From contig CAVTGC010000010.1 in NCBI GenBank assembly GCA_963734175.1, positions 252,976-316,975 of the forward strand: DNA of 64,000 nucleotides, given 5' to 3'. A program made the translations under genes and the position numbers. The stretch comes from an uncultured Candidatus Rokubacteria bacterium. Its GTDB lineage: Bacteria; Methylomirabilota; Methylomirabilia; Rokubacteriales; CSP1-6. The notes below the pieces were generated by a model. The model did not search any database and was not told where the DNA came from. It was given only the letters and a program-made list of their open reading frames with translations. Every line of letters starts with the position of its first letter. Positions within the stretch are counted from its first letter, which is position 1. Positions 12,014-41,224 of the stretch are shown in pieces.

Positions 12014-12362
12014 GTCGGGACTCGAGCTCGGCGTATCTGTCATTGAACAGCGTGGCGAGGAGCCGTACCTAACTTCAATCATGAACATGGACGCCGAGAA
12101 CGACGAGGGACCGATCGCTCAGCTCTACCTGCGCGGGTTGATCTTCGCTTCGCCATTGTTGTGGAAAACGTCGTCACGCGTGGTGACCTGAAGCCCGGTC
12201 TCCGAGTCCAACTCTGCGTGCGCACCCAAGTCGCTGTTGCGGCGGGAGCTCGTGGGCACCGAGGTAGTTGCGCAGAGAATCGTTCAGCCCTCTCTGCCAA
12301 CATGAGTGAGACAGTGACCCCCTGGGAGTTTAGAGTCGAGGGCGAGGCAGGATCGGAGAGCG

Positions 12363-12761
12363 ATGAGCGCATTGGAGCAGGCCCTCGGTGGGCCGGCGAT
12401 CGAGGTGGTGGCGAAGGCGACACGGCGGCGGTTCACGTTGGAGTACAAGCGGAAGGTGGTCCGAGAGGCCGACGCCTGTAAGACACCGGGCGCGATCGGG
12501 GCGCTGCTGCGGCGGGAGGGACTGTACTCCTCGCACCTGACGACGTGGCGGGCGGCGCGGGAGCGGGGCGAGTTGGTCGGGGCGCCGAAGCAACGCGGGC
12601 CGGCGCGGCGGGTCGTCGATCCGCGGGACAAGAAACTGGCCGAGCAAGCGCGGGAGATCAGCCGGTGGCAGAAGCGTGCCGAGCGAGCTGAGGCGCTGGT
12701 GGCCCTGCAAAAACAAGTGGCGGCGTTGCTGGGAACGCCGTTGGTCGACGAGACCTCGTGA
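12363..12761 (+). CDS. IS3-family transposase OrfA (HTH)
   Basis: MSALEQALGGPAIEVVAKATRRRFTLEYKRKVVREADACKTPGAIGALLRREGLYSSHLTTWR… Its stop overlaps the orfB ATG (GTGATGG). Confidence 0.9.
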   Translation: MSALEQALGGPAIEVVAKATRRRFTLEYKRKVVREADACKTPGAIGALLRREGLYSSHLTTWRAARERGELVGAPKQRGPARRVVDPRDKKLAEQAREISRWQKRAERAEALVALQKQVAALLGTPLVDETS

Positions 12762-13768
12762 TGGCGACGGTCGCCCAGATCGGGCCACGGCTGGGCATCG
12801 CTCCCACGTGCGCGGCGCTCGGGCTGCCCCGCGCCACGTACTATCGTCGACGTCGGCCCGCGCGCGCCGCGCCACCGCGGCGGCGGTCGCCTCGGGCCCT
12901 CGGCGAGAGCGAACGCGCGGCCGTGCTCGAGCAGTTGCATACGCCGCGCTTCGTGGACCTGGCGCCGGGCGAGGTCTATGCCACCCTGCTCGACGAGGGC
13001 CGATATCTGTGTTCCGAGCGGACGATGTATCGCGTCCTGGCCGCGCACGCCGAGGTGCGGGAGCGGCGCGCTCAGCTCCGGCATCCTGTCTATGCTGCCC
13101 CGGAGCTGCTGGCCCGTCGCCCCAACGAGCTGTGGAGCTGGGACATCACCAAGCTTCTCGGGCCCGTGAAGTGGACCTACTTCTACCTCTACGTCATGCT
13201 CGACGTCTTCAGCCGGTACGTGGTCGGCTGGATGGTGGCTCATCGCGAGAGCGCGACCCTGGCTGAGCAGTTCATCCGCGAGACCTGTGCGCGCCAAGCC
13301 ATCGTGCGCGAGCAGCTCACGGTCCACGCCGATCGCGGGTCGGCGATGACCTCGAAGCCCGTCGCCCTGTTGCTCGCGGATCTCGGCGTCACCAAGACGC
13401 ATGGCCGGCCGCACGTGTCGAACGACAACCCGTTCTCCGAGGCCCAGTTCAAGACGCTGAAGTACCGCCCGGCCTTCCCGGGGCGCTTCGGGTCGATCCA
13501 GGACGCGCGGGCGCACTGCCACGTCTTCTTCCCCTGGTACAACACCGAGCACCATCACACCGGACTCGGCCTGTTGACGCCCGCCGACGTGCACCACGGT
13601 TTGGCCGAGCAGCGCATCGCGGTGCGCGCGACCGTGCTCGCCACGGCCTACACGGCGCATCCCGAGCGATTTTCTGCGGGCCTTCCGGTCCCGGCGGCGA
13701 TGCCGACCGAAGTCTGGATCAACCCCCCAACGCGCCGTGCGCTCGCGGAGGTGGCGCTCACTCACTAA
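12758..13768 (+). CDS. IS3-family transposase OrfB (rve integrase core, DDE)
   Basis: …WSWDITKLLGPVKWTYFYLYVMLDVFSRYVVGWMVAHRES…HADRGSAMTS…HGRPHVSNDNPFSEAQFKTLKYRP… The 493-aa minus-strand ORF 12284..13765 is its antisense shadow. Confidence 0.9.
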   Translation: MMATVAQIGPRLGIAPTCAALGLPRATYYRRRRPARAAPPRRRSPRALGESERAAVLEQLHTPRFVDLAPGEVYATLLDEGRYLCSERTMYRVLAAHAEVRERRAQLRHPVYAAPELLARRPNELWSWDITKLLGPVKWTYFYLYVMLDVFSRYVVGWMVAHRESATLAEQFIRETCARQAIVREQLTVHADRGSAMTSKPVALLLADLGVTKTHGRPHVSNDNPFSEAQFKTLKYRPAFPGRFGSIQDARAHCHVFFPWYNTEHHHTGLGLLTPADVHHGLAEQRIAVRATVLATAYTAHPERFSAGLPVPAAMPTEVWINPPTRRALAEVALTH

Positions 13769-13826
13769 ACTCGAGACCCGACTGTCTCATTCTTGTTGAC
13801 AGGCTCCGCAGTGCCACCATCCGCTC

Positions 13827-14222
13827 GTGATCGAATTGCCACCGGCCGACACCTTCGATCAGTTCCTAGCCCTCGCGGAGCTGGCCAGAGAGGTACGCCG
13901 GTCGGCTGAGTGGGCACGAGCGGGTCGTAGACGCTCGATCCACGGCGCGAGCGACATTGGGCAGACCGATATCGCCGGCCTCATCCAAGCCAAGCTCGCG
14001 GCTGGTCTGCTGCCTCGCGCAAGGCCAGAGAGGACGTGGGTCGGCTTTGGGTCAGGCAAGGCTTGCGACGCATGCGAGCAGTCGATCACGGGGCAGAACC
14101 GCGAGATCGAGTTCGATGACCAAGGCTTGGGCACGATCCGGCTTCATGTCCTCTGCCTGGCGATGTGGCAGATCGAACGGGTCAAGGAGACCCTTCACGG
14201 TAGCGGCGGCGCGGCGGCGTGA
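13827..14222 (+). CDS. Small C-terminal zinc-ribbon protein, sub-family A
   Basis: MIELPPADTFDQFLALAELAREVRRSAEWARAGRRRSIHGASDIGQTDIAGLIQAKLAAGLLPRARPERTWVGFGSGKACDACEQSITGQNREIEFDDQGLGTIRLHVLCLAMWQIERVK. It is about 70% identical to 42525..42950. The GTG start lies 18 bp after the IS3 right end. Confidence 0.55.
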   Translation: MIELPPADTFDQFLALAELAREVRRSAEWARAGRRRSIHGASDIGQTDIAGLIQAKLAAGLLPRARPERTWVGFGSGKACDACEQSITGQNREIEFDDQGLGTIRLHVLCLAMWQIERVKETLHGSGGAAA

Positions 14223-17450: not shown

Positions 17451-17531
17451 TGTTTTCCCATCTGATTTAGAAGTGACGGCGACCGTCCGACGACGTAGAA
17501 TTTAGCGCGCGGCGGGACCGCCGCATTTCTC

Positions 17532-19870
17532 ATGCCGGGAGCAACGATGCTCCGATACAACGTCGCAGCGAACGCCGGTACTCGACGTGCGGTTGCCATC
17601 AGCGGCATCGTGCAGGGCGTCGGATTCCGTCCCTTCGTGCACGGGCTGGCCTGCGCCCTCGGTTTGCGGGGCTTCGTGCGGAATGCCGCGGGTGGCATTG
17701 AAATCGAAGTCGAGGGCGAAGTCGCGGCAATCGAGCGGTTCCTCGCAGAGCTCAATACTCGTAAGCCGCCGCGGGCCCGGATTGATTCGGTGTCCACGTT
17801 GCCCCGCCTCGCGCGCGGCGATGATGATTTTAGGATCGAGGCGAGCGCCGTCGACGTGCAAGGAGCCGTCTCCGTGTCGCCGGACATCGCGACGTGCGAT
17901 GACTGCCTAAGGGAGCTGTTCGATCCCGCGGACAGGCGGTATCGATACCCGTTCATCAACTGTGCGCAGTGCGGACCCCGCCTGACGATCGTCAGGACTG
18001 CTCCGTACGATCGCCAGCGTACGACCATGAGCGGGTTCGACATGTGCGCGCAGTGCCGCGCCGAGTACGATGACTCGCGCGACCGACGCTTTCACGCCGA
18101 GGCTATCGCCTGTTCGTCGTGCGGGCCGCGTCTGCGGCTCCTCGATGGTGCAGGCCGCCTCATGCACTCCCAGGATCCGCTTGCGGAGGCGATTGCCGCG
18201 CTGCGAAGCGGTGGCATTATCGCGGTGAAGGGGCTCGGAGGCTTTCACCTCGTGTGTGATGCCTATGACGTCGCTGCAGTGTCGGAGCTGCGCCGGCGTA
18301 AGCTGCGCGACGAGAAGCCGCTCGCGCTCATGGCGCGCGACCTCGCCGCGGCGGGTGAACTCGGCGAGATCTCCGACTCGGAGCGGCGGGCGCTGACGCT
18401 ACCGGCGAGGCCGATCGTGCTCTTGCGAGCACGATCGGATGCTCCGGTAGCGACCGCGGTGGCGACGGGGCTCGCGGTTCTCGGGGTCATGCTGCCGTAT
18501 ACCCCCGTTCATCACCTGATCCTGAGCGACATGCCCCATGCGGTGGTGATGACGAGCGGCAACCGCTCCGGTGAACCGCTCGTCCGCGAGGATGCGGAAG
18601 CGTCGGCCCGCCTGGCCGGCATCGCCGACGTCGTGCTGACGAACGATCGGGGGATCGAGACCCGGTGCGACGATTCGGTCGTTCGGGTCATTGGCCCTGG
18701 AATTTCATGGGTGCGACGATCGCGTGGCGAGGCCCCGCGGGGACTGTCGCTCCGCACGCCATTGGCCCGTCCCACACTGGCGCTCGGTGGCCATCTCAAG
18801 GCCGCGATCGCGCTTGGCGACGGACGGCGCGTGGTGCCCAGTCACCATCTCGGGGACCTCGACGAGTACCAGACGTATCGCGCGTACACGGACGCCATCG
18901 CACACTACCAGCGGCTGTTTCGGATCGCGCCACAACGCATCGTCCACGATCTGCATCCGGATTACGCCTCGACGCGATACGCCATCGAGCTTGCCAAGGA
19001 AACGGGTATGGAGCTGCTGGCCGTCCAGCATCATCACGCTCACATGGCGAGCTGCATGGCCGAGCATGGCTTGGCGGGGCCGGTGATCGGCGTCTGCTTC
19101 GACGGCACCGGCTGGGGCGCCGACGGCGCGATCTGGGGCGGCGAGTTCCTGGTCGGTGACGACAGCAGACTTCCGGCGCGCCGCGCATTTCAGCTACGTC
19201 GGTATGCCCGGCGGCGAGGCCGCCGTTCGCGAGCCGTGGCGCATGGCGGTGGCGCATCTCATCGCACGCCGGGGCGGCCGTCGAAACGCCCATCGCTGCG
19301 CGTCGATGCCGGACGCCGACGCACCGTGCGAGCGAATGCTCGAGCGAGGCTTCAACGCGCCGCTGACGTCGAGCGCCGGGCGGCTGTTCGATGCCGTCGC
19401 CGCGCTGGCGGGAGTCTGTGAGCGCGCCGAGCTATCGAGGGGCAGGCGGCCATGATGCTGGAGTCGCTGGCCCGCGGCGTCAGGCCGGCCGGGGCGTATC
19501 CCTTCGAGCTCGCCACCGGGTCGGATGCGCTGGTGATCGATCAGCGGCCGCTCATCCGAGCGGTCGCGGCCGACGTGCGCAAGGGCATCGGCGCCAGCCG
19601 TCATTGCCCGCCGATTCCACTCGACGATGGCCGAGGTCATCGTCGCCGTGTGCGAGCGGATCCGCGCCAGCGAGGGCGTCGATCGGTGTCGTCCTGAGCG
19701 GCGGCGTGTTCGTGAACGCCATCCTCGCGCGGAGAAGCGAGCGACGCGTTGCGAAGATCGGGGTTTCATGCCTTACCAGCACGTCAGCGTGCCCGCCAAC
19801 GACGGCGGTCTCTGCCTCGGGCAGCTCGCCATCGCGGCGGCGCGCGACGCGTCGGAGACGCGGTCATCAC
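17532..19870 (+). pseudogene. hypF: [NiFe]-hydrogenase maturation carbamoyltransferase HypF, frameshifted near 19150, 19450 and 19620
   Basis: Acylphosphatase motif (IVQGVGFRPFV), two zinc-finger pairs (CDDC…CAQCGPR ; CAQC…CSSCGPR), a YrdC-like region (IIAVKGLGGFHLVCDA), and a Kae1-like carbamoyltransferase domain. C-terminal segments (…FSYVGMPGGEAAVREPWRMAVAHL… ; …NDGGLCLGQLAIAAA) lie in other frames. Confidence 0.85.
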
Positions 19871-19872
19871 TG

Positions 19873-20121
19873 ATGTGCCTCGGCATCCCTGGCCGCGCTG
19901 GTCGAGACCTTCGCGAGCACGACGTGCTGATGGGCAAGGTCGACTTCGGCGGCGTGACGAAGCGGGTGTGCCTCGAGCACGTGCCCGACGTCCAGCCTGG
20001 CGACTACGTCCTCGTCCACGTCGGCTTCGCCCTCACGCGACTCGACGAGGCGGAAGCCGGCCGCGTCTTCGAGTTCCTCGAAGCCGATGAACCAGCTCGA
20101 CGAGCTGAGCGAGACCTCACC

Positions 20122-20125
<4 letters not shown>
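19873..20125 (+). CDS. hypC: Hydrogenase maturation factor HypC, with a possible 1-nt indel near the 3' end
   Basis: MCLGIPGRAGRDLREHDVLMGKVDFGGVTKRVCLEHVPDVQPGDYVLVHVGFALTRLDEAEAGRVFEFLE… The neighbouring frame ends …NQLDELSETSP*, with its TGA overlapping the hypD GTG (GTGA). Confidence 0.75.
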
Positions 20126-21244
<1,119 letters not shown>

Positions 21245-21245
<1 letters not shown>

Positions 21246-21836
21246 TGAGCAGTCTCTCGGCCGCCGATCACCCGCGAAGTCGCGCGAGAGCGCGGCCACG
21301 AGCGAGACGTTCTTCACGCGGAGGCCGACCGCATCGTCGCCTGTGCGCGTGCCATGGCCGCCGCTTTCGACGCCGGCGGGCGGCTGTTCGTCATGGGCAA
21401 CGGCGGCAGCGCGTGCGACGCGCAGCACGTCGCCGTCGAGTTCATGCACCCGATCATCGAGAAGCGCCGGCCGCTGCCGGCGATGGCGCTGGCCACCGAC
21501 ACCGCGCTGCTCACCGCCGTCGGCAACGACAGGACTTCTCCCTGGCGTTCTCCGAGCAGCTGCGGATCCTCGCCCGGCGCGGAGACATGGCGCTCGGGAT
21601 CTCGACGAGCGGAAAGTCGCGCCAACGTCATCCGCGCGCTCGGCGGCCGCGCGAGACTCGGACTGCTGACCGTCGGCTTCGCCGGCCGCGACGGCGGCCG
21701 AATGCCGGAGCTCTGCGACCACTGCTTCATGGTCCCGAGCTTCAGCATCCACCGCATCCAGGAGACGCACGCGACGCTCCTCCACGTCCTCTGGGATCTC
21801 GTTCACGTGATCCGCGGCGAGGAGGACGTCATGTGA
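21245..21836 (+). pseudogene. SIS-domain (GmhA/phosphoheptose-isomerase-like) protein, frameshifted, inside the hyp cluster
   Basis: …DVLHAEADRIVACARAMAAAFDAGGRLFVMGNGGSACDAQHVAVEFMHPIIEKRRPLPAMALATDTALLTAVGND / YDFSLAFSEQLRILARRGDMALGISTSGKS / ANVIRAL… / …LGLLTVGFAGRDGGRMPELCDHCFMVPSFSIHRIQETHATLLHVLWDLVHVIRGEE. Confidence 0.55.
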
Positions 21837-22882
21837 GCGATCCGCTGGGCTCGTGTCCGCTGCCGTATCGACCAATACGACCGCATCGTGCTCGGCCACG
21901 GCAGCGGCGGGCGGCTGACGGCCGACCTCGTGAACGCGTCTTCCTGCCGGCCTTTCGGAACGAGATGCTGGCAGCGCTCGAGGATCAGGCGACAGTCCGC
22001 GGTCAACGGCGGCACACGGCTGGCGATCACCACCGACGCGTTCGTGGTGCGGCCGCTTTTCTTTCCCGGCGGCGACATCGGACGCCTGGCCGTCCACGGC
22101 ACGGTGAACGACCTCGCCGTCGGCGGCGCCGAGCCCGCTGTACCTGTCGGCCGCGTTCATCCTCGAGGAAGGGCTCGCGCTTGGCGAACTGCAGCGGGTC
22201 GTCGCCTCGATGCGCGCCGCGTGCGCCGAGGCCGGCGTGACGCTGGTGACCGGCGACACCAAGGTGGTCGACCGCGGCAAGGGCGACAAGGTCTTCATCA
22301 CCACCACCGGCATCGGATTCGTCCCGGGCGAGCGGTCGCTCTCGATTGCCGCTGCGCGCCCGGGCGACCGCGTGATCGTGTCCGGCACGATCGGCGATCA
22401 CGGCATCGCGATCATGTCGGTGCGCGAGGGGCTCGAGTTCGAGACGTGCTGGAGAGCGACAGTGCGCCGCTGACCGATCTCGTTCGCGCGTTGCTCGAAG
22501 CGTCGGCCGGAGTCCGCTGCATGCGCGATCCGACGCGGGGCGGGCTGGCGAGCGCGCTCAACGAGCTCGCGGCCGCCTCGCGGGTCGGCGTGACGCTCGA
22601 CGAGGCGGCGATCCCGCTCCGACCCGAGGTGCGGGCGCCTGCGAGATGCTCGGGCTCGATCCGCTCTACGTCGCGAACGAGGGAAAGCTGGTCGCCGTCG
22701 TGCCGGCCGCCGAGGCCGACCGGGTGCTCGCCGCGATGCGGGCGCATCCGCTCGGCCGCGATGCCGCGATCATCGGCGAGATCGTCGCCGAGCACCCGGG
22801 CATGGTCACCCTGCGTACGCGCATCGGCGGGGAGCGCGTCGTGACGCTGCTGGCCGGCGAACAGCTGCCGAGGATCTGTTGA
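21833..22882 (+). pseudogene. hypE: Hydrogenase maturation factor HypE with multiple frameshifts
   Basis: VSDPLGSCPLPY… / IDQYDRIVLGHGSGGRLTADLVNA / …VFLPAFRNEMLAALEDQA… / …[40 protein letters not shown] / …[37 protein letters not shown]…[27 protein letters not shown] / …[11 protein letters not shown]…MRDPTRGGLASALNELAAAS… / …LGLDPLYVANEGKLVAVVP…GEQLPRIC*. Confidence 0.8.
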
Positions 22883-23933
22883 TGAACGACCCGATCGAGC
22901 AGCATCGACGTCCTCTGGATCACCGCCGGCCTCGAGCTGCGACGGCGACACGATCGCCATCACCGCCGCGACGCAGCCGAGCATCGAGGACCTCGTCCTC
23001 GGGGCGATCCCGGGCATGCCCAAGGTGCGGCTCTCACAATCCCGTGCTCGCCTACGAGAACGGCGACGAGTTCATGCAGCCACTTTCACGACGCCGCCGC
23101 CGGCGCGGCTCGACCCGTTCATCCTCGTGGTCGAGGGCTCGATCCCGAACGAGAAGAACAAGCCGGAGGGCTACTGGGCCGGCTTCGGCGTCGATCGATG
23201 CGACCGGCCAGCCGATCACGACCTGCGAGTGGATCGACCGGCTGGCGCCGCAGGCCTGGGCGGTCGTGGCCGCGGGCACCTGCGCGACCTACGGCGGCAT
23301 TCACGCCATGGCGGGCAATCCGACCGGCGCGATGGGCCTGGCCGACTATCTCGGCTGGCAGTGGCAGTCGAAGGCCGGCATCCCGATCGTCTGCGTGCCG
23401 GGCTGCCCGGTGCAGCCCGACAACTTCATGGAGACGCTGCTCTACCTGCTACGGCAGGCGGCGGGCACGGCGCCGATGATCCCGCTCGACGACGCGCTGC
23501 GGCCGACGTGGCTGTTCGCGCAGACGGTGCACGAGGGCTGCGATCGCGGCGGCTACTACGAGCAGGCCGACTTCGCGGCCGAGTACGGCTCGCAGCAAGT
23601 GCATCGTGAAGCTCGGCTGCTGGGGGCCGGTGGTGCAGTGCAACGTCGCCAAGCGCGGCTGGATGAACGGCATCGGCGGCTGCCCCAACGTCGGCGGCGT
23701 CTGCATCGGCTGCACGATGCCCGGCTTCCCCGACAAGTTCATGCCGTTCATGGACGAGCCGCCCGGGCGCGAAGATGTCGACCTCGGCCGTCCTCATGTA
23801 CGGCCGCACGGTGCGCGCGCTGCGCAACTTCACCAAGACGTCGCTCGACCAGCGAGCCGGCCTGGCGGCAGCCGCGGCGCCGCAGCCGAGGAAGCTGATC
23901 CATGGCCGAGCGGACAAGAACCTCGTCGAGATG
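22882..23933 (+). pseudogene. [NiFe]-hydrogenase small subunit with frameshifts. The 3' boundary is ambiguous.
   Basis: …INVLWITAGLE… / …HNPVLAYENGDEFMQP… / …RLDPFILVVEGSIPNEKNKPEGYWAGFGVD… / …PITTCEWIDRLAPQAWAVVAAGTCATYGGIHAMAGNPTGAMGLADYLGWQWQSKAGIPIVCVPGCPVQPDNFMETLLYLL… / …KLGCWGPVVQCNVAKRGWMNGIGGCPNVGGVCIGCTMPGFPDKFMPFMDEPPG…. Confidence 0.75.
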
Positions 23934-25674
23934 TCGTGGGATCCGATCACGCGGATCGTCGGCAGCCTCGGCATCCACACGAAGATCGACTTCGCCAACC
24001 GGCAGGTCGCCGAGTGCCACAGCACGTCGTCGATCTTCCGCGGCTACAGCGTCTTCATGAAGGGCAAGGACCCGCGCGACGCGCACTTCATCACCAGCCG
24101 CATCTGCGGCATCTGCGGCGACAACCACGCGACCTGCGCCGTCTACGCGCAGAACATGGCCTTCGGCGTGCAAGCCGCCGCCGCTGGCCGAGTGGATCAT
24201 CAACCTCGGCGAGGCGGCCGAGTACATGTTCGACCACAACCTCTTCCAGGACAACCTGGTCGGCGTCGACTTCTGCGAGCAGATGGTCCGCGAGACGAAT
24301 CCCGGCGTCTTCGCCCGAGCCGAGCGGACGCCGGCGCCGCACGCCGACGTGCACGGCTACCGCACGATCGCCGACATCATGCGGTCGCTCAATCCGTTCA
24401 CCGGCGCGTTCTACCGCGAAGCGCTGCAGATGAGCCGGCTCACGCGCGAGATGTTCTGCCTGATGGAAGGCCGGCACGTGCATCCCTCGACGCTCTATCC
24501 CGGCGGCGTCGGCACCGTGCCGAGCGTGCAGCTCTTCACCGACTACCTCGTGCGGCTGATGAAGTACGTCGAGTTCATGAAGAAGGTGGTGCCGCTCCAC
24601 GACGACCTCTTCGACTTCTTCTACGAGGCGCTGCCCGGCTACGAGGAGGTCGGCCGGCGGCGCGTCCTGCTCGGCTGCTGGGGCTCGTTCCAGAATCCCG
24701 AGACTTGCGACTTCACGTACGAGCGATGGCCGCGTGGGGCCGCGACATGTACGTCACGCCGGGCATCGTCGTCGACGGCAAGCTCGATCACGACCGACCT
24801 CGTCGAGATCAACCTCGGCATCCGCATCCTGCTCGGCAGCTCGTTCTACGACGACTGGCAGGACGGGGAGACGTTCGTGAAGGCCGATCCGCTCGGCAAT
24901 CCCGATCGACCAGCGCCACCCGTGGAACCAGACGACGACGCCGCGGCCGCAGAAGCGCGACTTCGAAGGCAAGTACACCTGGGTCATGTCGCCGCGCTGG
25001 TTCGACCAGCGAACCGGCGAGCATCTGGCGCTCGACACCGGCGGCGGGCCGCTGGCGCGGCTCTGGGCGACCGCGCTCGCCGGGCGCGTCGATATCGGCT
25101 ACGTGAAGGCCACCGGGACGAGCGTGAAGATTCGATCTGCCGAAGACCGCGCTCATGCCCGAGGCGGAGCTCGAGTGGAAGATCCCGCGCTGGAGCAACA
25201 CACTCGAGCGCAACCGCGCGCGCACCTATTTCCAGGCGTACGCGGCCGCGGCCGCGCTCTGCTTCGTCGAGCGGGCGCTGGCGGAGGTCCACGCGGGACG
25301 CATGGCGACCGTGTCGCCGTTCACGGTGCCCGAGGAGGCGATCGGCTGCGGCTTCCACGAGGCCGTGCGCGGCGTGCTGTCGCACCACGTCGTGATTCGC
25401 GAACGGCAAGATCGCCAACTACCACCCGTATCCGCCGACGCCCTGGAACGCGAGCCCGCGCGACTCCTTCGGCACGCCCGGCCCGTACGAGGACGCCGTC
25501 CAGAACACGCCGATCTTCGAGGAGAACGGACCCGAGACCTTCAAGGGCATCGACATCATGCGCACGGTGCGGAGCTTCGATCCGTGCCTGCCCTGCGGCG
25601 TGCACATGTACCTCGGCAACGGCAAGGAGATCTCCGTGCGCCACTCGCCGACGTTCGGCGTCCAGCCGTCATGA
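23931..25674 (+). pseudogene. [NiFe]-hydrogenase large subunit with frameshifts. Signatures fit the group 1h/5 'high-affinity' type. The start could be as early as 23775.
   Basis: …EMSWDPITRIVGSLGIHTKIDF…HFITSRICGICGDNHATCAVYAQNMAFGV… (L1) and …FKGIDIMRTVRSFDPCLPCGVHMYLGNGKEI… (L2). Internal segments (…LYPGGVGTVPSVQLFTDYLVRLMKYVEFMKKVVPLHDDLFDFFYEALPGYEEVG… ; …MYVTPGIVVDGKL… ; …KYTWVMSPRWFDQRTGEHLALDTGGGPLARLW… ; …YHPYPPTPWNASPRDSFGTPGPYEDAVQNTPIFEENGPE…) are spread across all three frames. Confidence 0.8.
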
Positions 25675-26222
25675 CCGACGGGGCGGGCGACCTCGACCGG
25701 CAGTTGCACCATCTCGAAACCATGCTGCACGAGCTTGAACGCGGCCCCGAATCGCGGATACGCACGCAAGCACGGGACGTCGTACGCGCCGTCCTCGATC
25801 TTCATGCGAGCGGGCTCGATCGGATGATGCGTTGTATCGGCAGCTTCGCGAGCGGGCCGGCAATCGTGAACGCGTTGACGGGCGACCCTTTGATCGCCGG
25901 TTTGCTGCTGCTCCACGATATCCATCCGGAGAAGCTTGAAACCCGTGTGCGCGCCGCCGTCGACGCGCTGACCCCCGCGCTGGTCCCTGAGGGGGCGCGC
26001 GTCGCGCAGGTCAGTGTTAATGAAGGCATCGTCCGTGTGCGGCTGGAGCGTGAGCTGGGACGGGGCGGCCCTTCCGCAGCGGCCCTCCGGTCGCGCATCG
26101 AGCAGGCGCTCGTGGCCGCCGCTCCGGATGCCGTCGGCCTTGAGATCGACGTACCGGACACGACGGCGTTCGTGCCGGTTACAGACGTGCGTCTGCGGAG
26201 GCCGAGCGAGGCGCAGTCATGA
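25671..26222 (+). CDS. NifU-like (Fe-S scaffold C-terminal-domain-like) protein, hydrogenase-associated
   Basis: …LLLLHDIHPEKLETRVRAAVDALTPALVPEGARVAQVSVNEGIVRVRLERELGRGGPSAAALRSRIEQALVAAAPDAVGLEIDV resembles the NifU C-domain, with the usual G-S-C-G-S-C replaced. Its ATG overlaps the large-subunit stop (ATGA). Confidence 0.55.
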   Translation: MTDGAGDLDRQLHHLETMLHELERGPESRIRTQARDVVRAVLDLHASGLDRMMRCIGSFASGPAIVNALTGDPLIAGLLLLHDIHPEKLETRVRAAVDALTPALVPEGARVAQVSVNEGIVRVRLERELGRGGPSAAALRSRIEQALVAAAPDAVGLEIDVPDTTAFVPVTDVRLRRPSEAQS

Positions 26223-26815
26223 ACGCCCTGACCGCCTTGCGAAACTTCGCGCGGCTCCGGCCGGTGGCCGAGTGGTGCGATATATGCGCGGCGCCCCTCG
26301 CGCCGACGCACGAGCACTTTATTGAACGAAAGACCGGAAACCTCCGATGCGCCTGCACGAGCTGCGAGCGCGTGCTGGTTGCGCCCGGGGCTTCCTGGGC
26401 GCCGGTGCGCCGGCGGCTCGAGCGACTCGCAGATTTTCGGCTGACCGATGAAGAGTGGAGGGTCTTCGGCTTGCCGATCGATCTGGCGTTCTTCTTCACA
26501 CGCGCCGCCACGCGGCGTGTGGTGGCTCGGTATCCGAGCCCCGCCGGGATGGTCGAGGGCGCTATTCCGCTGCCGACATGGGAAAGCGTCGTCGCCGCGA
26601 ACATCGTGCTCAGCGGACTCGAGGCCGAGGTGGAGGCGTTCGTGGTGAATCGCGTCGCCGGGCGCAGGGACTATTTCGTCGCGTCCGTTGACGAATGCTA
26701 CCGGTTGATCGGACTGATCCGTCTGCACTGGAGTGGATTCGCAGGAGGCCCGGCGGTTTGGACGGCGATCGACACCTTCTTCGCCGGCGCCGCAACGCAT
26801 GGAGCGCGAGCGTGA
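26219..26815 (+). CDS. Conserved hydrogenase-cluster hypothetical protein with a Cys motif (CDICAAP…H.H…LRCACTSC)
   Basis: Coupled by ATGA to the NifU-like gene. The following gene starts at a GTG that overlaps this gene's stop (GTGA). Confidence 0.5.
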   Translation: MNALTALRNFARLRPVAEWCDICAAPLAPTHEHFIERKTGNLRCACTSCERVLVAPGASWAPVRRRLERLADFRLTDEEWRVFGLPIDLAFFFTRAATRRVVARYPSPAGMVEGAIPLPTWESVVAANIVLSGLEAEVEAFVVNRVAGRRDYFVASVDECYRLIGLIRLHWSGFAGGPAVWTAIDTFFAGAATHGARA

Positions 26816-27949
26816 ACCTCGATCAGGTCGCCACCCTGGCGCAGACGCTGCTCTACGAAGGCTACCTGCTATACCCCTATCGGGCGTCCTCGGTGAAGAA
26901 CCGGCACCGGTGGCTCTTCGGCACGTTGTATCCGAGACAGTTCGTCGAGACACAGGACGAGAGCGACCGCTGGTGGATGCAGACCGAGTGTGTCGTGCAA
27001 GGGACGGATGCGAGCGACGTCACGGCGCGAGTCCGGTTTCTGCATATCACGGAGACGGGTACGGCCGAGTACGAGGTCGACAGCCCTCCGTACCGGTTGG
27101 AAGATCTGATCGCGACGCCGCAGACGACCAGGTTCGGATTCGAAGCGGCGAATTGGCCGAGAACCGTTGAAGGGGGATCTCGCTCTGTGCGCCCGGCGTG
27201 TCGAGGCTGGTGTCTATACGGTCAGAGCGGTCGTCCAGAATCTGACGTCATATGACGCTTCGCTCACGGATCAGCGTGAGCACCGCCGCGACCGTGCGCT
27301 GGCAAGCGCGTTCGCGGCGCCGCATACGTTGCTGAGCGTCGCGAACGGCCAGTTCGTCTCACTTGTCGATCCTCCCGCGCCGCTGATGGCGGCCGCCCGG
27401 CCATGCGAGAACATCGGCACGTGGCCCATCCTCGTCGGCGACCCGACGACGCGCAATGCGATGCTCTCCGCACCGATCGTTCTCGACGATTATCCGCGAC
27501 TCGCCCCCGAGAGCCCGGGCGACTTCTTTGACGCCACCGAGATCGACGAGCTCCTGACACTGCGCGTTCTGACCCTGACCGACGAGGAAAGGCAAACGAT
27601 GCGCGCGGGAGACGCGAAGGCGCGCGCGCTTCTTGAACGCACCGAGGCGCAAGACGAGGCGCATCGACGCCAACTGCACGGCGCGTCGCGACCGCCGGTG
27701 CTGAGCGGCGGGAAGGCGACCCTCGATTCGGGAACGCGTGTTCGGCTCCGTCCTCGGCGAGGCGGCGACATCCTCGACCTCGCGCTGACCGGCAAGACGG
27801 CCACGGTTGTGAAGCTTGAGCAGGACTACGAGGGTCGCACCTTCGTCGCGGTGACCGTGGACGACGATCCCGGCCGGGATCTCGGCGTCGAAGGCCGGCC
27901 CGGCCACCGGTTCTATTTCCGACCTGACGAGATCGAGATCGTGGAATGA
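26812..27949 (+). pseudogene. Conserved hydrogenase-cluster hypothetical protein of about 380 aa, with one frameshift near 27170-27250
   Basis: ORFs 26695..27255 and 27167..27949 join at an 'aaggggga' run (…RFGFEAANWPRTVEG / DLALCARRVEAGVYTVRAVVQNLTS…). Its stop overlaps the protease ATG. Confidence 0.45.
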
Positions 27950-28445
27950 CGCCCCGGCGCGTGCTCGTGGCTGGAATCGGCAACATCTTCTTCGGAGATG
28001 ATGGATTCGGCGTGGAAGTCGTGCGCCGGCTTGCGCGAGCGAGGGCTTCCCGACGGCGTCGCTATTGTGGACTTCGGCATTCGCGGCCTCGACCTGACGT
28101 ACGCGCTGGTCGACGGCTACGACGCCGCCATCCTCGTCGACGCGCTGCCGCGCGGGTGGCCCACCAGGAACCCTGTATGTCCTCGAGCCGGACATCGCGA
28201 CGTCGGATACGCCATCCATCGAGACGCACGGCATGGAGCCGATGAAGGTCCTCAGGCTCGCCAGCGCCCTGTGCGGACGGTTGCCCGTGCTTCGGATCGT
28301 CGGTTGCGAGCCTGCCACGCCGGAAGAGGTCGGCGAGATGGCGATGGGACTGAGCGCGACCGTCGCCGCGGCGGTCGCGGAGGCGGTTCGCGTGGTCGAA
28401 ACACTGGTGAGCCAGCTCCAGGAGGGTGTCGACGCCAGTGCATGA
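27946..28445 (+). pseudogene. Hydrogenase maturation endopeptidase (HupD/HyaD/HoxM type), frameshifted
   Basis: MTPRRVLVAGIGNIFFGDDGFGVEVVRRLA / …GLPDGVAIVDFGIRGLDLTYALVDGYDAAILVDALPRG / …LYVLEPDIATSDTPSIETHGMEPMKVLRLASALCGRLPVLRIVGCEPAT…. Confidence 0.75.
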
Positions 28446-28779
28446 GCTCGCCATTGCCGAGGAGGTCGTCGCGCTCGTGGCTGCGCGGACGGAGGGCGCG
28501 CGCGTCACGCGCGTGGTGCTCGAGATAGGCCGTCTGTGCGCCGTGCTACCCGACGCCATGCGCTTTTGCTTCGATCTCGCGACGGAGGGAACAGCGGCCG
28601 ACGGCGCGCGAGCTCGAGATTCTCGAGATTCCCGGCCGGGGCCGCTGCCGGGGCTGCGGCTCCGAGGTCGCACTCGATCGGCCCTTCGGTCGATGTCACT
28701 GCGGCGGCAGTGACCTGGAGTGGCTGACGGGCGAAGAGCTTGCATCAAGGAGATCACCTGGCTGATGGAGGACGTCTGA
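28438..28779 (+). pseudogene. hypA: Hydrogenase nickel-insertion protein HypA, with one frameshift near 28610
   Basis: VHELAIAEEVVALVAARTEGARVTRVVLEIGRLCAVLPDAMRFCFDLATEGTAA… / …LEILEIPGRGRCRGCGSEVALDRPFGRCHCGGSDLEWLTGEEL…. GGAGGG lies 11 nt upstream of the GTG. Confidence 0.8.
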
Positions 28780-28780
28780 C

Positions 28781-29569
28781 ATGTGTCGTACGTGCGGCTG
28801 CTCGCCCGTCGGCGGACGCCGGGTCTGCGGACCATCCGCATGGACATGCGTACGATCATCACCATGACCATGATCACGGATCGCCCGTCGAATCCCGCGC
28901 GCGTGCTGACCCTCGAGCAGCGCGTGCTCGCGCGGAACGACTGGATGGCTGCCGCCAACCGTCGATGGCTTCGCGACCGGGGCATCGTGGCGATCAACTT
29001 GATGGCAGGCCCCGGCGCCGGCAAGACGACGCTGCTCGAGCGAACGCTCCGCGATCACGGGGCAGCCATCGATTTGCTCGTCATCGAAGGTGATCAGGCG
29101 ACGGAGCACGACGCGCGAGCGGATCCGGACCGCGGGCGGCGCAGGCGATCCAGATCAACACCGGCGCGGGCTGTCACCTCGATGCGGCGATGGTCGCCGA
29201 GGCGCTCGATGAGCTGAAGCCGGCGCCGGGAGCTCTCGTCGTGATCGAGAACGTGGGCAACCTCGTCTGTCCGGCCCTCTTCGATCTCGGCGAGCACGTC
29301 CAAGGTGGTCGTCACCGTCGGTGACCGACGGCGACGACAAGCCGCTCAAGTATCCCCACATGTTCCGGGCGAGCGACGTCGTCCTGCTCAACAAGATCGA
29401 TTTGCTGCCGTATGTGCAGTTCGATGTCCGGAGCTGCGTTGCGCGCGCACGTGAGCTGAGTCCGCACGTCGAGAGTTTCGAGGTGTCGGCGACGCGCGGC
29501 GACGGGATGGTCGCGTGGTACACGTGGCTCGCACAGCTACGCCCCGACTCGGTGCCGGGATGGCCGTGA
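28781..29569 (+). pseudogene. hypB: Hydrogenase nickel-insertion GTPase HypB, with multiple frameshifts
   Basis: MCRTCGCS… ; His-rich stretch HPHGHAYDHHHDHDHG ; …VLTLEQRVLARNDWMAAANRRWLRDRGIVAINLMAGPGAGKTTLLERTL… ; …[21 protein letters not shown]… ; …VVLLNKIDLLPYVQFD…. Confidence 0.8.
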
Positions 29570-29570
29570 C

Positions 29571-32300
29571 ATGAGTCGGATGGAAGAGCAGCAGATCCCT
29601 CCGAGACGGCGGAGATCGCCGGCCTGGAGGGGCAGCTGGCCGAGCTCGCGGCGACGGCCGGCGAAGCGCAGGATTTTCTGCTGCGCCTTGCGTCCGCGTT
29701 GTTTCCCGGGGGACCGCCGCGATCGCGCGCGCGTCACCTGGGCGGACCGCCGTGTCGGCTCCGACAGCGCCTTCGACCGCGATACCCCGGCGCGCGCCGA
29801 GGCGCGGCTCCGCGCGGCCGAGGTGCGCTACCGAACGCTCGTGGAGCAGATTCCCGCGGTGACGTTCATGGCCGTGCTCGGCGAGGGCGAGAACGAGGTC
29901 TACGTCAGCCCGCACATCGAGACGCTGCTCGGCTTCACCCAGAAGGAGTGGCTCGAGAACCCGTTTCTCTGGTACCGGCAGCTGCACCCCGACGATCGCG
30001 AGCTGTGGAACGAGGAGTTCGCCCGCGGCTGCCGCACCGGCGGCCCGTTCCGCGCCGAGTGCCGCTTCATCGCCCGCGACGGACACGTGGTGTGGGTGCG
30101 CGGCGAGGCGCGCGCTGGTCAAGGACGAGCATCGGGCGGCCGCTGTTCCTGCAGGGCGTCGCCTTCGACATCACCGAGAGCAAGCGAGCCGAGGCGCTGT
30201 TGCTTCGCGACGCGGTTCGTACGACCGAGGAGCGTTATCGCGATCTGGTCGATGGCCTCGGCGCCGATCGTCTGGGAAGCGGAGCCGGCGCCGTTCGAGT
30301 TCACGTTCGTGAGCCGGCGTTCGGAGGACATGCTCGGCGTCGCCTCCGAGCGAATGATGCGAGAACCAGGGTTCTGGCCAGGCCGCATTCACGTGGACGA
30401 TCGAGAGGCGGTGATAGGACACTGGCATGCTGCCATTCGGGAGGGCAACCATCACGCCTTCGAATACCGGGTCTGGACGGTGGACGGACGCCTTGTCTGG
30501 CTACAGGACAACGTTCGCATCATCCGCGACGCGGACGGGCACGCGCGTCATCTGCTCGGCGTCATGCTCGACATCACCGAGCGGAAGGCGACCGAGCAGG
30601 AGCGCGCCGAGCTGCTGCGCCGTGAGCAGGAGGCACGAACCGAATCGGAAACGATGAACCGAGTCGGGCGCGTGCTCGTTGCCGAGCTGGATACGTCGCG
30701 CCTCGTGCAGGCGGTCACGGACGCCGGCCGGGAGCTGTGCGGAGCCGAGTTCGGCGCCTTCTTCTACAACGTCACTGACGCGCCCGCCCGCGAATCCTAT
30801 ACGCTCTACACGCTGTCGGGCGCGCCCCGGGAGGCGTTCGAAAAGTTTCCCCAGCCGCGGAATACGCCGATCTTCGAGCCGACATTTCGCGGTACGGCAA
30901 TCGTCCGGATCGATGACGTGACCACGGATGCGCGCTACGGTCGGATGCCACCGCACCACGGTCTCCCGCCAGGCCATCTTCCCGTCCGGAGTTATCTGGC
31001 TGTACCCGTCAAGTCCCGCTCCGGCGAAGTCCTCGGAGGCCTCTTCTTCGGCCATCCTGCGCCAAAGCGCTTCACGGATCGCCATGAGCGCATGGTCAGT
31101 GCTCTCGCCGTTCAGGCGGCGATCGCAATGGACAACGCGCGTCTCTACGAGGCCGCAGAAAAGGCCCGTTTGGCTGCGGAAGAGGCCAATCGTGCGAAAG
31201 ACGAGTTCCTGGCCACCATGTCGCACGAGCTTCGAACACCTCTCAACTCGGTTCTCGGGTGGGTGCGTATGCTACGGGCCGGGCAGGTTGCTCCCGATCA
31301 GGTGTCCCATGCGCTCCTGGTCATCGAGCGAAACGCTCGTTCGCAGGTGCAGCTCGTGGAAGACATCATGGACGTCTCACGCATCGTCACGGGCAAGCTC
31401 CGTCTTGACGTCCAGCCAGTAGCCCTTGCTTCGGTGATCGAGGCCGCGGTCGATGTCGTGCGGCTGGCCGCTCAGACGAAGCGCATCGACCTTCAAGTCG
31501 ACGTCGATCCAGGGGTGCCGGGTCTGCTCGGTGATGCCAGTCGCCTTCAACAGGTAGTCTGGAACCTGCTGGCGAATGCCGTGAAGTTCACGCCAGTAGG
31601 CGGACACGTTGGCGTGCGGCTGGAGCACGCCGACAACAAGGCGAGGATCATAGTGACAGATACCGGGGCCGGCATCGCCCCTGAGTTTTTGCCGCACGTG
31701 TTCGAGCGCTTCCGCCAAGCTGACAGTTCGAGTACCCGCAGACACGGCGGGTTGGGACTCGGTCTTGCGATCGTACGTCACATCGTGGAGCAACACGGCG
31801 GTGAAGTGCGCGTGGCAAGTCGCGGACTCGGACAGGGCGCGACATTCACGGTGGAGATACCGCTGAGCGAAACCGTGGCGAGCGCGGATGAAGCAACGCG
31901 GAGCCCAGCCCAAACGAACAACGACGCGCTTCGTGGCGTACGGATTCTGCTGGTCGATGATGAGCCGGAGGCGCTCGAATTGACGACGGCCCTGTTACGA
32001 TTCGCGGGGGCCGAAGTGAGTGCCGTCCTATCGGCGGCGGAAGCGGTGCGCGCGATTGAGAATGCGAGCCCGGAGGTGCTGATAAGCGATATCGGAATGC
32101 CCGGACAGGACGGCTACCAGCTCATCCAGGATCTGCGACGCCGCGGATTTCGTTTTGCCGCGATCGCACTCACCGCGTACGGACGCTCGGAGGATCGTGA
32201 GCAGGCATTCAAAGCCGGCTTCCAAGTGCATCTTCCGAAACCTGCCGATCCGCGAGAGCTGACGACGGCCATCTTGACGTTGCTCGGCAAAACACCGTAA
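29571..32300 (+). CDS. Hybrid sensor histidine kinase (PAS-PAS-GAF-HisKA-HATPase_c-REC), 909 aa. Its second PAS domain contains two compensating 1-nt frameshifts.
   Basis: HisKA H-box …EFLATMSHELRTPLNSVLGW… ; HATPase …VTDTGAGIAPEFLPHVFERFRQAD…[23 protein letters not shown]… ; REC …RILLVDDEPEALEL…LISDIGMPGQDGYQLIQDLRRRG…. Between about 30118 and 30280 the conserved PAS sequence (…GRPLFLQGVAFDITESKRAEALLLRDAVRTTEERYRDLVDGLGA…) is readable only in the neighbouring frame (ORF 29699..30625). Confidence 0.8.
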   Translation: MSRMEEQQIPPRRRRSPAWRGSWPSSRRRPAKRRIFCCALRPRCFPGDRRDRARVTWADRRVGSDSAFDRDTPARAEARLRAAEVRYRTLVEQIPAVTFMAVLGEGENEVYVSPHIETLLGFTQKEWLENPFLWYRQLHPDDRELWNEEFARGCRTGGPFRAECRFIARDGHVVWVRGEARAGQGRASGGRCSCRASPSTSPRASEPRRCCFATRFVRPRSVIAIWSMASAPIVWEAEPAPFEFTFVSRRSEDMLGVASERMMREPGFWPGRIHVDDREAVIGHWHAAIREGNHHAFEYRVWTVDGRLVWLQDNVRIIRDADGHARHLLGVMLDITERKATEQERAELLRREQEARTESETMNRVGRVLVAELDTSRLVQAVTDAGRELCGAEFGAFFYNVTDAPARESYTLYTLSGAPREAFEKFPQPRNTPIFEPTFRGTAIVRIDDVTTDARYGRMPPHHGLPPGHLPVRSYLAVPVKSRSGEVLGGLFFGHPAPKRFTDRHERMVSALAVQAAIAMDNARLYEAAEKARLAAEEANRAKDEFLATMSHELRTPLNSVLGWVRMLRAGQVAPDQVSHALLVIERNARSQVQLVEDIMDVSRIVTGKLRLDVQPVALASVIEAAVDVVRLAAQTKRIDLQVDVDPGVPGLLGDASRLQQVVWNLLANAVKFTPVGGHVGVRLEHADNKARIIVTDTGAGIAPEFLPHVFERFRQADSSSTRRHGGLGLGLAIVRHIVEQHGGEVRVASRGLGQGATFTVEIPLSETVASADEATRSPAQTNNDALRGVRILLVDDEPEALELTTALLRFAGAEVSAVLSAAEAVRAIENASPEVLISDIGMPGQDGYQLIQDLRRRGFRFAAIALTAYGRSEDREQAFKAGFQVHLPKPADPRELTTAILTLLGKTP

Positions 32301-36769: not shown

Positions 36770-37276
36770 GCCAATTCAGCGTGCAACCCTTCGGCCAACG
36801 GCTGCTTCATGCTCAGGCCTGGGGCGTTCAGTCGTTTTACGCGGGCCACGATCTGCTAGAGGTGATGGCATGGAGCTTCATGGCTTTGCGAGGACCGGTC
36901 GCTGCTCGATAGGGCGTTCCGAGTCTGCCGAAGCAACGTCTCCTAGAAGTCGTCGAATCTGACGCGGAGTCAAACGCGTACGCGCGGAGCCTATCGAGGA
37001 GAGCTGTGAAAAATCGAAAGCTTTCTCTCGACAGCGATCCGGCTACTATGAGCACCTAGAGAAATGGCCGATGAGCGCCAATTCCTTCAGACCGGCAAGA
37101 ACGTCGTCGCACAATCGCAGATCAGGGGCGCAAGGTGGTGGAGGTTTCCTAGCGCAGCCACACTACGTCATCGTCACCGAGGCCGAGGACAAGGCCCGAA
37201 GCAAGTAAACCCCTAAGCTCTCTCACTTGCTTCTCAGGCTGTCCTCAAGCGGCGGTGCTCAAGGTCACCTCTAGCT

Positions 37277-38444: not shown

Positions 38445-38534
38445 CTCTAGCTCGCATGATGCCCAGCTTTGCTGGTCCGAAGTGAGCGCCAGCCGGACCC
38501 AGCCGGATCATCATCATGGATGAGCAGGCGCGCA

Positions 38535-39231: not shown

Positions 39232-39736
39232 GCGCCGATTCCTCCAGAGGCAACGCAGAGTAGCAAAAACGGCCGCGAGCGTAGGATCGTCTGCCCCCCT
39301 CCGGACGCCACACCGCTCTTCGCCGCCGCCGGCTCGACGCGCTGACGACCCCGGCTCCCCGACCTGGCGATCAAACCACTTCTTCGATCCGATCAGCCGC
39401 GACATCCGGTTCGAGCAGCCTGTTGAACGGAAGCGGCCAGGGCGGGAGGTGCGTCGGCGGCGTCAGCCTGAGAGGCTCGCGACTCGCCTTTCTGCAGTAA
39501 TGACGATGCTGGTGCCATGTCGCGCGATGCTGCCCGGATGCTGCGAGTATGCCCACGTCTCTGGCCCAGCAGTACCATGGCATCGCAGCCGCCATCTTAC
39601 GCGGTCAGCTATCCGGTGCGAGGTGGCGGTTCACTCTGACTCGTGAAACGCGATCCATGCGCCCTCTCTGCCAACATGAGTGAGACAGTGACCCCCTGGG
39701 AGTTTAGAGTCGAGGGCGAGGCAGGATCGGAGAGCG

Positions 39737-41142: not shown

Positions 41143-41224
41143 ACTCGAGACCCGACTGTCTCATTCTTGTTGACAGGCTCCGCGCGCCTGAACCGACAAC
41201 TCCGCGTGGACTGAGTCGGCTACT

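Follow-up and report, generated by a model that had tools for sequence, protein, structure and literature searches.

Much of the uptake of atmospheric H2 by soils is attributed to group 1h [NiFe]-hydrogenases, and as a consequence each locus encoding such an enzyme stands as a marker of trace-gas metabolism. The closest solved member of the group is the AH enzyme of Cupriavidus necator (Ralstonia eutropha) H16, composed of HofK and HofG, encoded by megaplasmid pHG1 and deposited as PDB 5AA5. No Tat signal is present on its small subunit, in which a CDGD sequence supplies an aspartate ligand to the proximal cluster. Comparable enzymes exist in actinobacteria, with Hhy (Hyd2) of Mycobacterium smegmatis and the 'high-affinity' group 5/1h enzymes of Streptomyces; there, high-affinity uptake has been demonstrated in the organisms, whereas the locus described here is known from its sequence. 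Nearer still are hhy loci of uncultured soil bacteria, L081 (JGI 3300004463) and L082-L084, with large subunits 93% and 89% identical to the one we describe.

The DNA that was analysed, a stretch of 64,000 nucleotides that we call the window, carries a cluster which follows these systems closely. Compared with their counterparts in the C. necator AH, its large subunit shows 82% and its small subunit 73% identity, and both signature motifs of the large subunit, L1 and L2, are the same. The two clusters also have in common a NifU-like protein devoid of the cysteine pair, a DUF5947 protein, a hypothetical protein of the 476-residue type, a protease, and the maturation genes hypF-C-SIS-D-E and hypA-B. 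The accessory genes are 36-62% identical to those of the C. necator cluster and each gene of that cluster has its counterpart in the window, with the exception of DUF6084, missing both from the window locus and from its nearest relatives. The order differs: hypFCD-SIS-E lies upstream of hhyS in the window, and the SIS gene stands between hypC and hypD in C. necator. The hypothetical protein has 378 residues instead of 476, downstream of hypB comes a hybrid PAS-GAF histidine kinase, and the frames are broken in the assembly of the window. The motifs L1 and L2 are likewise identical in the actinobacterial enzymes, HhyL being 78-79% identical to the plasmid-encoded M. intracellulare and S. fungicidicus proteins, and the backbone hhyS-hhyL-NifU-like-DUF5947-...-protease is common to the window and to the actinobacterial clusters. 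In L081 and L082-L084, the order from hhyS to the hybrid kinase is that of the window, yet all genes are intact, with no frameshift; the region upstream of hhyS in L082-L084 lacks hypFCDE, and their flanks showed no IS element. The locus is a typical member of group 1h, 93% identical to soil-metagenome sequences, adding nothing new to the picture of the H2 sink. In a search with the locus, the best match on a genome contig was 86% identical, in a Myxococcaceae MAG, and a Rokubacteria-type match reached 90%.

Class of the hydrogenase

As written in the sequence, the reading frames of hhyS, hhyL and the maturation genes are interrupted. The large-subunit gene, hhyL, occupies positions 23902-25674 of the + strand and would encode about 589 residues after frame correction, but an intact open reading frame is absent, motifs L1 and L2 being in different frames. 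Insertions were placed near 24172, 24787, 24902, 25137 and 25402, and a deletion near 24726; with one more frame change at 23905-23912, near the start codon, this makes about seven single-base indels, six of them mapped. The original prediction had assigned the range 22882-25674 to the large subunit; this range covers both hhyS and hhyL, hhyL alone corresponding to 23902-25674. Its two motifs, by contrast, were exact: TSRICGICGDNH, which holds the N-terminal pair of cysteines ligating the Ni-Fe centre, is encoded at 24093-24128, and SFDPCLPCGVH, with the C-terminal pair, at 25573-25605, both on the + strand. Two papers give precisely these strings for the L1 and L2 conserved in group 1h/5 large subunits (PMC5364354, PMC10080006); the reference 1h sequences carry both, and HoxG (1d), HoxC (2b) and HoxH (3d) have neither. 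HhyL continues for 22 residues after the histidine of L2, where the mature large-subunit chain of 5AA5 ends, which fits the removal of this tail by a maturation protease.

The assignment to group 1h (formerly group 5, or 'actinobacterial-type') proposed beforehand is supported by a set of concordant comparisons made with the frame-corrected protein. HhyL aligns with 5AA5_C, the HofG chain of the C. necator AH, with 1137 bits, against 154 bits for the next best solved hydrogenase and about 120 bits for Huc of M. smegmatis (group 2a). It is 78-82% identical to the HhyL proteins of Cupriavidus, Streptomyces and Mycobacterium, and 24-29% identical to HoxG (1d), HoxC (2b) and HoxH (3d). A neighbour-joining tree places it inside the clade made of HofG and of the Streptomyces and Mycobacterium HhyL, with the reservation that the method is distance-based and the outgroups are few. 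One could imagine that the motifs are common by coincidence to an enzyme from outside group 1h, of class 2a (Huc-like), 1f, 1l or some other [NiFe] class. This appears extremely improbable, as almost 1000 bits separate the 1h structure from every other solved hydrogenase, Huc included, as clade and identities join the protein to three named 1h enzymes, and as both the small subunit and the accessory genes fit the 1h type, hhyS directly adjoining hhyL. Placement in group 2a or in another class, which would have spoken against the prediction, was not what the data gave. When corrected HhyL, HhyS, orf183, DUF5947 and orf378 were scanned against NCBIfam, every match was far below its cut-off (best score 247 bits for a cut-off of 600); containing no group-1h-specific model, this library could not discriminate the class.

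The small-subunit gene, hhyS (22883-23898, + strand), begins with an ATG that the stop codon of hypE immediately precedes, and contains eight mapped single-base insertions together with a probable one at 22884-22903. Its product aligns with 5AA5_A (HofK) with 582 bits, the next chain scoring 146. Alignment revealed no Tat motif (RRxFxK) in HhyS. The protein reads GLSCDGD where HoxK has GLECTCC, so that CDGD replaces the CxxC of other classes, an aspartate standing for the second cysteine; a proximal cluster with three cysteines and one aspartate has been described (PMC11023054). Finally, HhyS possesses about 45 additional C-terminal residues past the portion that aligns to periplasmic small subunits, and the long C-terminal extension beyond the common fold that had been noticed at the outset is real.

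Gene order and insertion sequences

The cluster is ordered hypF-hypC-hypD-SIS-hypE-hhyS-hhyL-(NifU-like)-DUF5947-orf378-protease-hypA-hypB-sensor kinase, all on the + strand, and it comprises everything that had been announced for it: a small subunit, a NifU-like protein, conserved hypotheticals, a protease and hypABCDEF. Upstream of hhyS, hypF (17532-19870, end approximate) encodes acylphosphatase, zinc-finger, YrdC and Kae1-like domains, and from about 19258 onwards at least 4-6 frameshifts garble its C-terminal quarter. It is followed by hypC (19873-20100, end approximate), which starts MCLGIPG... and has indels near 20115-20155, and by hypD (20119-21240), in which 16 single-base insertions fall within about 1.1 kb, the densest stretch of indels in the window. 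The SIS-domain gene (21258-21836) has three indels, and hypE (21837-22882) three insertions and three deletions. Downstream of hhyL, orf183 (25671-26222) and the DUF5947 gene (26219-26815) are free of frameshifts. Next comes orf378 (26812-27949), a conserved hypothetical gene with one insertion near 27149-27152, the product of which is 39% identical to the 476-residue protein of the C. necator AH cluster. A HycI-family maturation endopeptidase gene (27946-28445) with insertions near 28028 and 28153 precedes hypA (28438-28779), which has an insertion near 28609, a deletion near 28740 and, at its 3' end, additional small deletions, and hypB (28781-29574, end approximate), with six insertions and one deletion. 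The series ends with a hybrid PAS-PAS-GAF-HisKA-HATPase-REC sensor kinase (29571-32300), kept at the same position in the closest relatives; its open reading frame of 909 residues hides five compensating indels before 30268. Further on, Pfam scans of the short open reading frames at 32.5-35.5 kb gave no matches.

The cluster had also been presented as lying on a potentially mobile, IS-flanked segment. The flanking part of this statement stands. Two copies of an IS3-family element (orfA, orfB), at 12287-13809 and 39661-41183, both on the + strand and hence in direct orientation, are 100% identical over 1523 nt without gaps, and bracket 25.9 kb holding the whole hydrogenase cluster. Inside this segment lies an IS481-like element with a transposase of 345 residues (37266-38465, - strand), further copies of which, at 44805-46004 and 59806-60985, are 99.4-99.6% identical without gaps, each copy being flanked by CTAG. 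Mobility, in contrast, did not receive support: we found neither a matching target-site duplication of 3-5 bp, outside the IS3 pair or around each copy, nor another copy of the IS3-bracketed unit, and the nearest relatives carry the hydrogenase cluster without IS elements.

Origin of the frameshifts

About 65 single-base indels are spread between 17.5 and 30.3 kb, where nearly every gene is broken. Some 80% of them are +1 insertions, mostly outside homopolymers, and many resemble a polymorphic site that would have been spelled as two adjacent bases. Their density follows the local GC content, being higher at higher GC (Spearman 0.64, p 1.4e-4), and the inserted bases are skewed (17 A for 4 T). 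Indels are absent from orf183, from the DUF5947 gene, from the final 2 kb of the kinase gene and from the genes at 47-54 kb, and no indel difference was seen within the set of two IS3 copies or within that of three IS481-like copies. A GC3 frame plot was too noisy for mapping the frameshifts. Homopolymer-type sequencing error was rejected as a sole cause, since most inserted bases differ from both neighbours, and so was uniform corruption, whether deliberate or random, since the indels stand in the public record with the A over T skew of the inserted bases.

Once corrected, the proteins are free of in-frame stops (the garbled C-terminal part of hypF excepted, as it resisted correction) and deviate at only three of 777 near-invariant columns, always conservatively, which is no worse than intact homologues. 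The deviations are 0/306 for HhyL, 0/142 for HhyS, 1/101 for HypD (a conservative A to S), 0/94 for HypE, 1/54 for HypB, 0/31 for HycI and 1/49 for orf378. Furthermore, the Logan assembly of run ERR11571147, a run for which we found nothing in the literature, encodes on one contig proteins identical to those of orf183 and DUF5947 in the window, and on this same contig uninterrupted genes of 378, 165 and 114 aa correspond to the frameshifted orf378, hycI and hypA, with a spacing that agrees with the window after its extra bases are removed. Nine hand-corrected versions of orf378 or HycI had no exact match in the protein collection, so that the clean version in the Logan assembly must differ from our reconstruction of orf378/HycI by at least one residue. 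A homologue search with corrected orf378 gave a best match 88% identical, the members of its cluster being no closer, and an exact-pattern scan of JGI metagenome contigs with corrected and uncorrected sequence around 24905 returned 0 matches.

Taken together, the conservation of the corrected proteins, their freedom from stops and the intact genes of the ERR11571147 assembly make it most likely that the indels are sequencing or assembly (consensus) errors. Doubled polymorphic sites would fit a long-read consensus in which several strains, or several copies collapsed into one, had been merged. It is documented that consensus sequences from long reads suffer from frameshift errors (PMC9262707). 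The idea of doubled SNPs does not predict the surplus of A over T among the inserted bases. A genuine group 1h cluster in which the indels are errors of the public assembly rather than mutations is, in our opinion, what the window very probably contains, and the locus is most likely intact and functional in the organism itself.

The frameshifts could instead be real, and the hydrogenase/hyp genes a dead, decaying pseudogene cluster of an IS-rich accessory segment with which no H2 would be oxidised. The indels are indeed in the public record, the kinase reading frame that contains five of them being found in the protein collection as an exact match to the translation of the window; the IS copies and the flanking genes are indel-free, so that the sequence is not uniformly poor; and identical IS3 copies enclose the segment, which has another IS inside. 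We nevertheless consider this very unlikely. In bacterial mutation spectra substitutions outnumber indels by about 10 to 1, and neutral decay should accordingly have produced dozens of replacements of invariant residues and several stops, where just three conservative replacements and zero stops are seen. Bacterial pseudogenes are subject to a deletion bias, the opposite of the insertion bias met here; indel density tracks GC content; and orf378, hycI and hypA are intact in an independent assembly whose neighbouring proteins are identical. The uneven distribution of the indels, and the fact that an IS-bounded accessory segment is a plausible site for real gene decay, do speak against reading them as errors.

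A slightly broader proposition, that either the IS3-bracketed 25.9 kb forms a composite transposon or the indels are real, is still unlikely. With a composite transposon, the entire group 1h hydrogenase would move between replicons or strains together with its maturation genes and a regulator, and two slightly different copies of the unit coexisting in the sample could have generated the doubled-base artefacts. With real indels, an unusual mutational process, insertion-biased and linked to GC, would just have inactivated the locus.

If the indels are consensus errors, as we favour, the lesson is one of data quality: every catalytic and maturation gene is broken in a public assembly, and automated annotation would call pseudogenes or miss the locus, thereby under-counting hydrogenase capacity. 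When the frames are taken into account and corrected, the enzyme proves fully conserved.

Enzyme function and affinity for dihydrogen

By homology to the solved C. necator enzyme, we may propose how the protein would work. The four cysteines of L1 and L2 in HhyL would bind the Ni-Fe centre, where H2 would be oxidised, and electrons would exit via three FeS clusters of HhyS, predicted to be cytoplasmic as it has no Tat signal; in the proximal one, an aspartate ligand would replace a cysteine, a feature associated with insensitivity to O2. The electrons would then pass to an acceptor and on to aerobic respiration. Building and processing of the active site would fall to HypABCDEF, the SIS protein and the HycI-type protease.

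The original prediction went further, reading atmospheric H2 scavenging into the class. Yet the closest solved and characterised 1h enzyme is of low affinity, so that high affinity is not readable from class membership and the label 1h should not be equated with it; high affinity is a kinetic property, marked by an apparent Km in the 10-400 nM range and by uptake below 0.53 ppmv H2, and is not decided by sequence alone. The C. necator enzyme, with a Km of 3.6 µM, cannot use atmospheric H2 (PMC7174314). It is quite conceivable, if somewhat short of an even chance, that the window encodes a group 1h enzyme which is likewise no atmospheric scavenger and would oxidise H2 only at micromolar levels, the C. 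necator AH being, with an HhyL 82% identical, the closest reference 1h enzyme tested. In M. smegmatis, HhyE, a putative FeS protein having a NifU-like domain with CxxC, is needed for Hhy activity, and species without HhyE include ones with 'mid-affinity' 1h enzymes (Islam et al.), which argues in the same direction. The actinobacterial NifU-like protein keeps CxxC, to which the mycobacterial one, HhyE, adds a Cys-rich C-terminal domain; orf183 is without both, having GRGG in place of the mycobacterial CKSC, and the CxxC has also been lost from its C. necator homologue, a 'NifU family protein' 36% identical to it (orf183 is itself weakly NifU-like, with a Pfam E of 4.8e-4, under the curated cut-off). 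Against a low affinity, we must consider that the nearest relatives of the locus are soil-metagenome sequences of the Acidobacteriota, Planctomycetota, Myxococcota and Rokubacteria types, groups in which trace-gas oxidation is considered common, and that a true HhyE could lie elsewhere in the genome. Moreover, whole-cell apparent Km values of 10-400 nM come from most measurements of group 1h bacteria, and affinity seems to be tied to membrane association and to the respiratory chain rather than to the sequence class (PMC7174314).

Identity of the hydrogenase genes

Translation of the three forward frames of 22860-25700 yields the two active-site motifs of a [NiFe]-hydrogenase large subunit, TSRICGICGDNH (L1) at 24093-24128 and SFDPCLPCGVH (L2) at 25573-25605. 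The original prediction took them for signatures of group 1h/5, and this is correct, because two papers give these exact strings as the conserved L1 and L2 active-site motifs of that group (PMC5364354; PMC10080006). The range 22882-25674, there ascribed to the large subunit, does hold hydrogenase genes, but they are two and not one: hhyS, encoding the small subunit, at 22883-23898, and hhyL, encoding the large one, at 23902-25674. Among the listed ORFs none of 590 codons covers hhyL, which is represented only by overlapping fragments of 250-440 codons, and L1 and L2 are found in separate reading frames.

Once frame-corrected to 589 aa, HhyL matches HofG (PDB 5AA5 chain C), the group 1h reference structure, from the actinobacterial-type hydrogenase (AH) of Cupriavidus necator H16, with 1137 bits, as against 154 bits for the best other hydrogenase and about 120 for Mycobacterium smegmatis Huc (group 2a). 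The comparison set, all taken from annotated records, comprised HofG, HoxG (1d), HoxC (2b) and HoxH (3d) of C. necator plasmid pHG1, together with the plasmid-encoded HhyL of S. fungicidicus and M. intracellulare; identity reaches 82% with HofG, 78% with the S. fungicidicus and 79% with the M. intracellulare protein, versus 24-29% with HoxG, HoxC and HoxH. A neighbour-joining tree of these three 1h references and the three other Hox subunits places the window protein within the 1h clade. No comparison put it in group 2a or in another class. Corrected HhyS agrees: HofK (5AA5_A) is its best match at 582 bits, the runner-up chain reaching 146. A twin-arginine signal is lacking, and GLSCDGD takes the place of the GLECTCC of the membrane-bound enzyme, in keeping with the three cysteine and one aspartate ligands of the proximal cluster of C. 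necator AH (PMC11023054). DUF6084 is the one member of the C. necator AH cluster with no counterpart in the window, and in the four nearest relatives (L081-L084, uncultured soil-bacterial hhy loci) the downstream genes, beginning with hhyS and ending with a hybrid PAS-GAF histidine kinase, follow the same order as here. Taken together, scores, identities, tree, small-subunit features and accessory genes support, at the level of sequence, the proposed group 1h/5 class. As a new member of a familiar enzyme family the locus is unremarkable, apart from its many broken frames.

That kinase, a hybrid PAS-PAS-GAF-HisKA-HATPase-REC sensor protein (29571-32300), lies directly 3' of hypB, as it does in all four relatives, and may serve this 1h lineage as a regulator of its own; it is missing from the clusters inspected in C. 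necator, Streptomyces and Mycobacterium. These clusters carry a DUF6084 gene followed by a gene for a hypothetical protein of 450-476 aa, whereas the window has, at 26812-27949, one 378-aa gene (orf378) in place of the pair. Its product is 39% identical to the hypothetical protein and has no match in Pfam or NCBIfam.

Origin of the broken frames

Nearly every gene is broken: some 65 single-base events occur in 13 kb (17500-30300), about 80% of them +1 insertions. In hhyL, DNA alignment with L081, from a JGI soil metagenome (HhyL 93% identical), and with L082 and L083 (89%) located five single-base insertions (near 24172, 24787, 24902, 25137 and 25402) and one deletion (near 24726); the frame also shifts once within the first codons, after the ATG at 23902 and before codon 4. 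Per-gene counts come from frameshift-aware protein-to-DNA alignment with each gene's nearest homologue. The densest stretch, of about 1.1 kb, is hypD, with 16 insertions and no deletion; the other counts are hhyS (eight and none, with a probable ninth insertion near its start), hypB (six and one), hypE (three and three), the maturation protease gene hycI (two and none), hypA (one and one), orf378 (one and none) and the SIS gene (one and two). The C-terminal quarter of hypF is scrambled by at least four events, and the four insertions and one deletion of the sensor kinase, all before 30268, are masked in a seemingly open 909-codon ORF; orf183 and the DUF5947 gene have no indel.

These indels are very probably assembly artefacts, in view of the conserved residues, the insertion bias, the tracking of GC content and the intact genes of a Logan contig, while we hold it quite unlikely that they are real and the hydrogenase genes truly pseudogenised. 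Stop codons are absent from the corrected proteins, save for the C-terminal stretch of HypF, too scrambled for correction. Compared with 23-126 homologues, the corrected proteins deviate at 3 of 777 invariant or near-invariant columns, each time conservatively (HhyL 0/306, HhyS 0/142, HypD 1/101, HypE 0/94, HypB 1/54, HycI 0/31, orf378 1/49), and intact homologues show equal or greater counts at near-invariant columns. Neutral decay brings about ten substitutions for each indel, and dozens of replacements would therefore be expected at such columns in real pseudogenes. The strong excess of insertions, mostly outside homopolymers, is also the reverse of what bacterial pseudogenes show, in which deletions predominate, and a tie of indel density to local GC content (Spearman 0.64, p 1.4e-4, 500-nt bins) again speaks against decay.

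Real decay would draw some support from the patchy distribution of the indels, from IS copies without indel differences and from intact genes at 47-54 kb; that guessed corrected sequences of orf378 and HycI have no exact match in the protein collection likewise counts against an artefact. Yet a Logan contig of 3756 nt (run ERR11571147) encodes orf183 and DUF5947 products that do not differ from those of the window, followed by three genes of 378, 165 and 114 codons which, judged from the encoded proteins, are uninterrupted and overlap as in L081; in the window the same genes are disrupted by indels, +1 in orf378, +2 in hycI and mixed in hypA. Long-read assemblies are known to suffer from frameshift errors in their consensus (PMC9262707), and we infer such an origin here, which fits the many resolved identical IS copies and the 338-kb source contig.

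Many insertions resemble a variable site spelled as two adjacent bases, as in CA[A/G] become CAAG, CG[C/G] become CGCG and, four times, [G/A]TC become GATC. This pattern would fit a consensus over mixed strains or collapsed copies, a hypothesis that leaves unexplained the excess of inserted A (17) over T (4). Elsewhere, a second sensor kinase (54956-57690) is split into two overlapping ORFs in different frames, PAS (54956-56080) and PAS-HisKA-HATPase-REC (55840-57690), probably by one further frameshift outside the hydrogenase cluster.

Function and affinity for H2

What is established for the locus is its class, metal-ligand motifs, small-subunit features and maturation gene set. By analogy with the C. 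necator structure and mycobacterial genetics, the enzyme would oxidize H2 in the cytoplasm, insensitive to O2, and pass the electrons via three FeS clusters to the respiratory chain. The high affinity originally predicted cannot be deduced from membership of class 1h alone. The 1h enzyme of C. necator, a bacterium unable to use H2 from the atmosphere, has a Km of 3.6 uM, and affinity appears to hinge on membrane association (PMC7174314). Hhy activity in M. smegmatis requires HhyE, which is NifU-like and bears CxxC motifs (PMC6883350). The NifU-like product of orf183 (25671-26222) has lost these cysteines, like its C. necator homologue and unlike those of Mycobacterium and Streptomyces, which keep them. 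We see the chances for and against scavenging of atmospheric H2 by this locus as about balanced.

Insertion sequences and neighbouring features

Two IS3-family copies, 100% identical over 1523 nt, bracket the cluster in direct orientation (12287-13809 and 39661-41183). The flanking by IS elements put forward originally is therefore confirmed, and the bracketed segment might be mobile, as had been suggested. A search for target-site duplications around the pair and around each copy found none, and L081-L084 have the cluster without IS elements. An IS481-like element is present in three copies, 99.4-99.6% identical without gaps, at 37266-38465 (inside the bracketed segment), 44805-46004 and 59806-60985, each with CTAG on its flanks, a target-site pattern typical of the IS481 family. 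An intact transposase of IS5/IS1182 type with DUF772 and DDE domains (5882-7327, minus strand) and an HTH_3 and Peptidase_M78 (ImmA/IrrE-like) gene (61081-62202, minus strand) reinforce the mobile-element character of this stretch. Near both IS3 copies lies an inverted repeat of 337 nt, 80% complementary (13884-14220 and 42527-42863), which may correspond to paralogous small genes. Further repetition is seen in four tandem paralogues of an ABC-transporter substrate-binding protein (PF04392; 47417-51454, minus strand), with full-length domain matches, and in a 139-nt tandem repeat of 100% identity (992-1130 and 1128-1266, within 992-1266).
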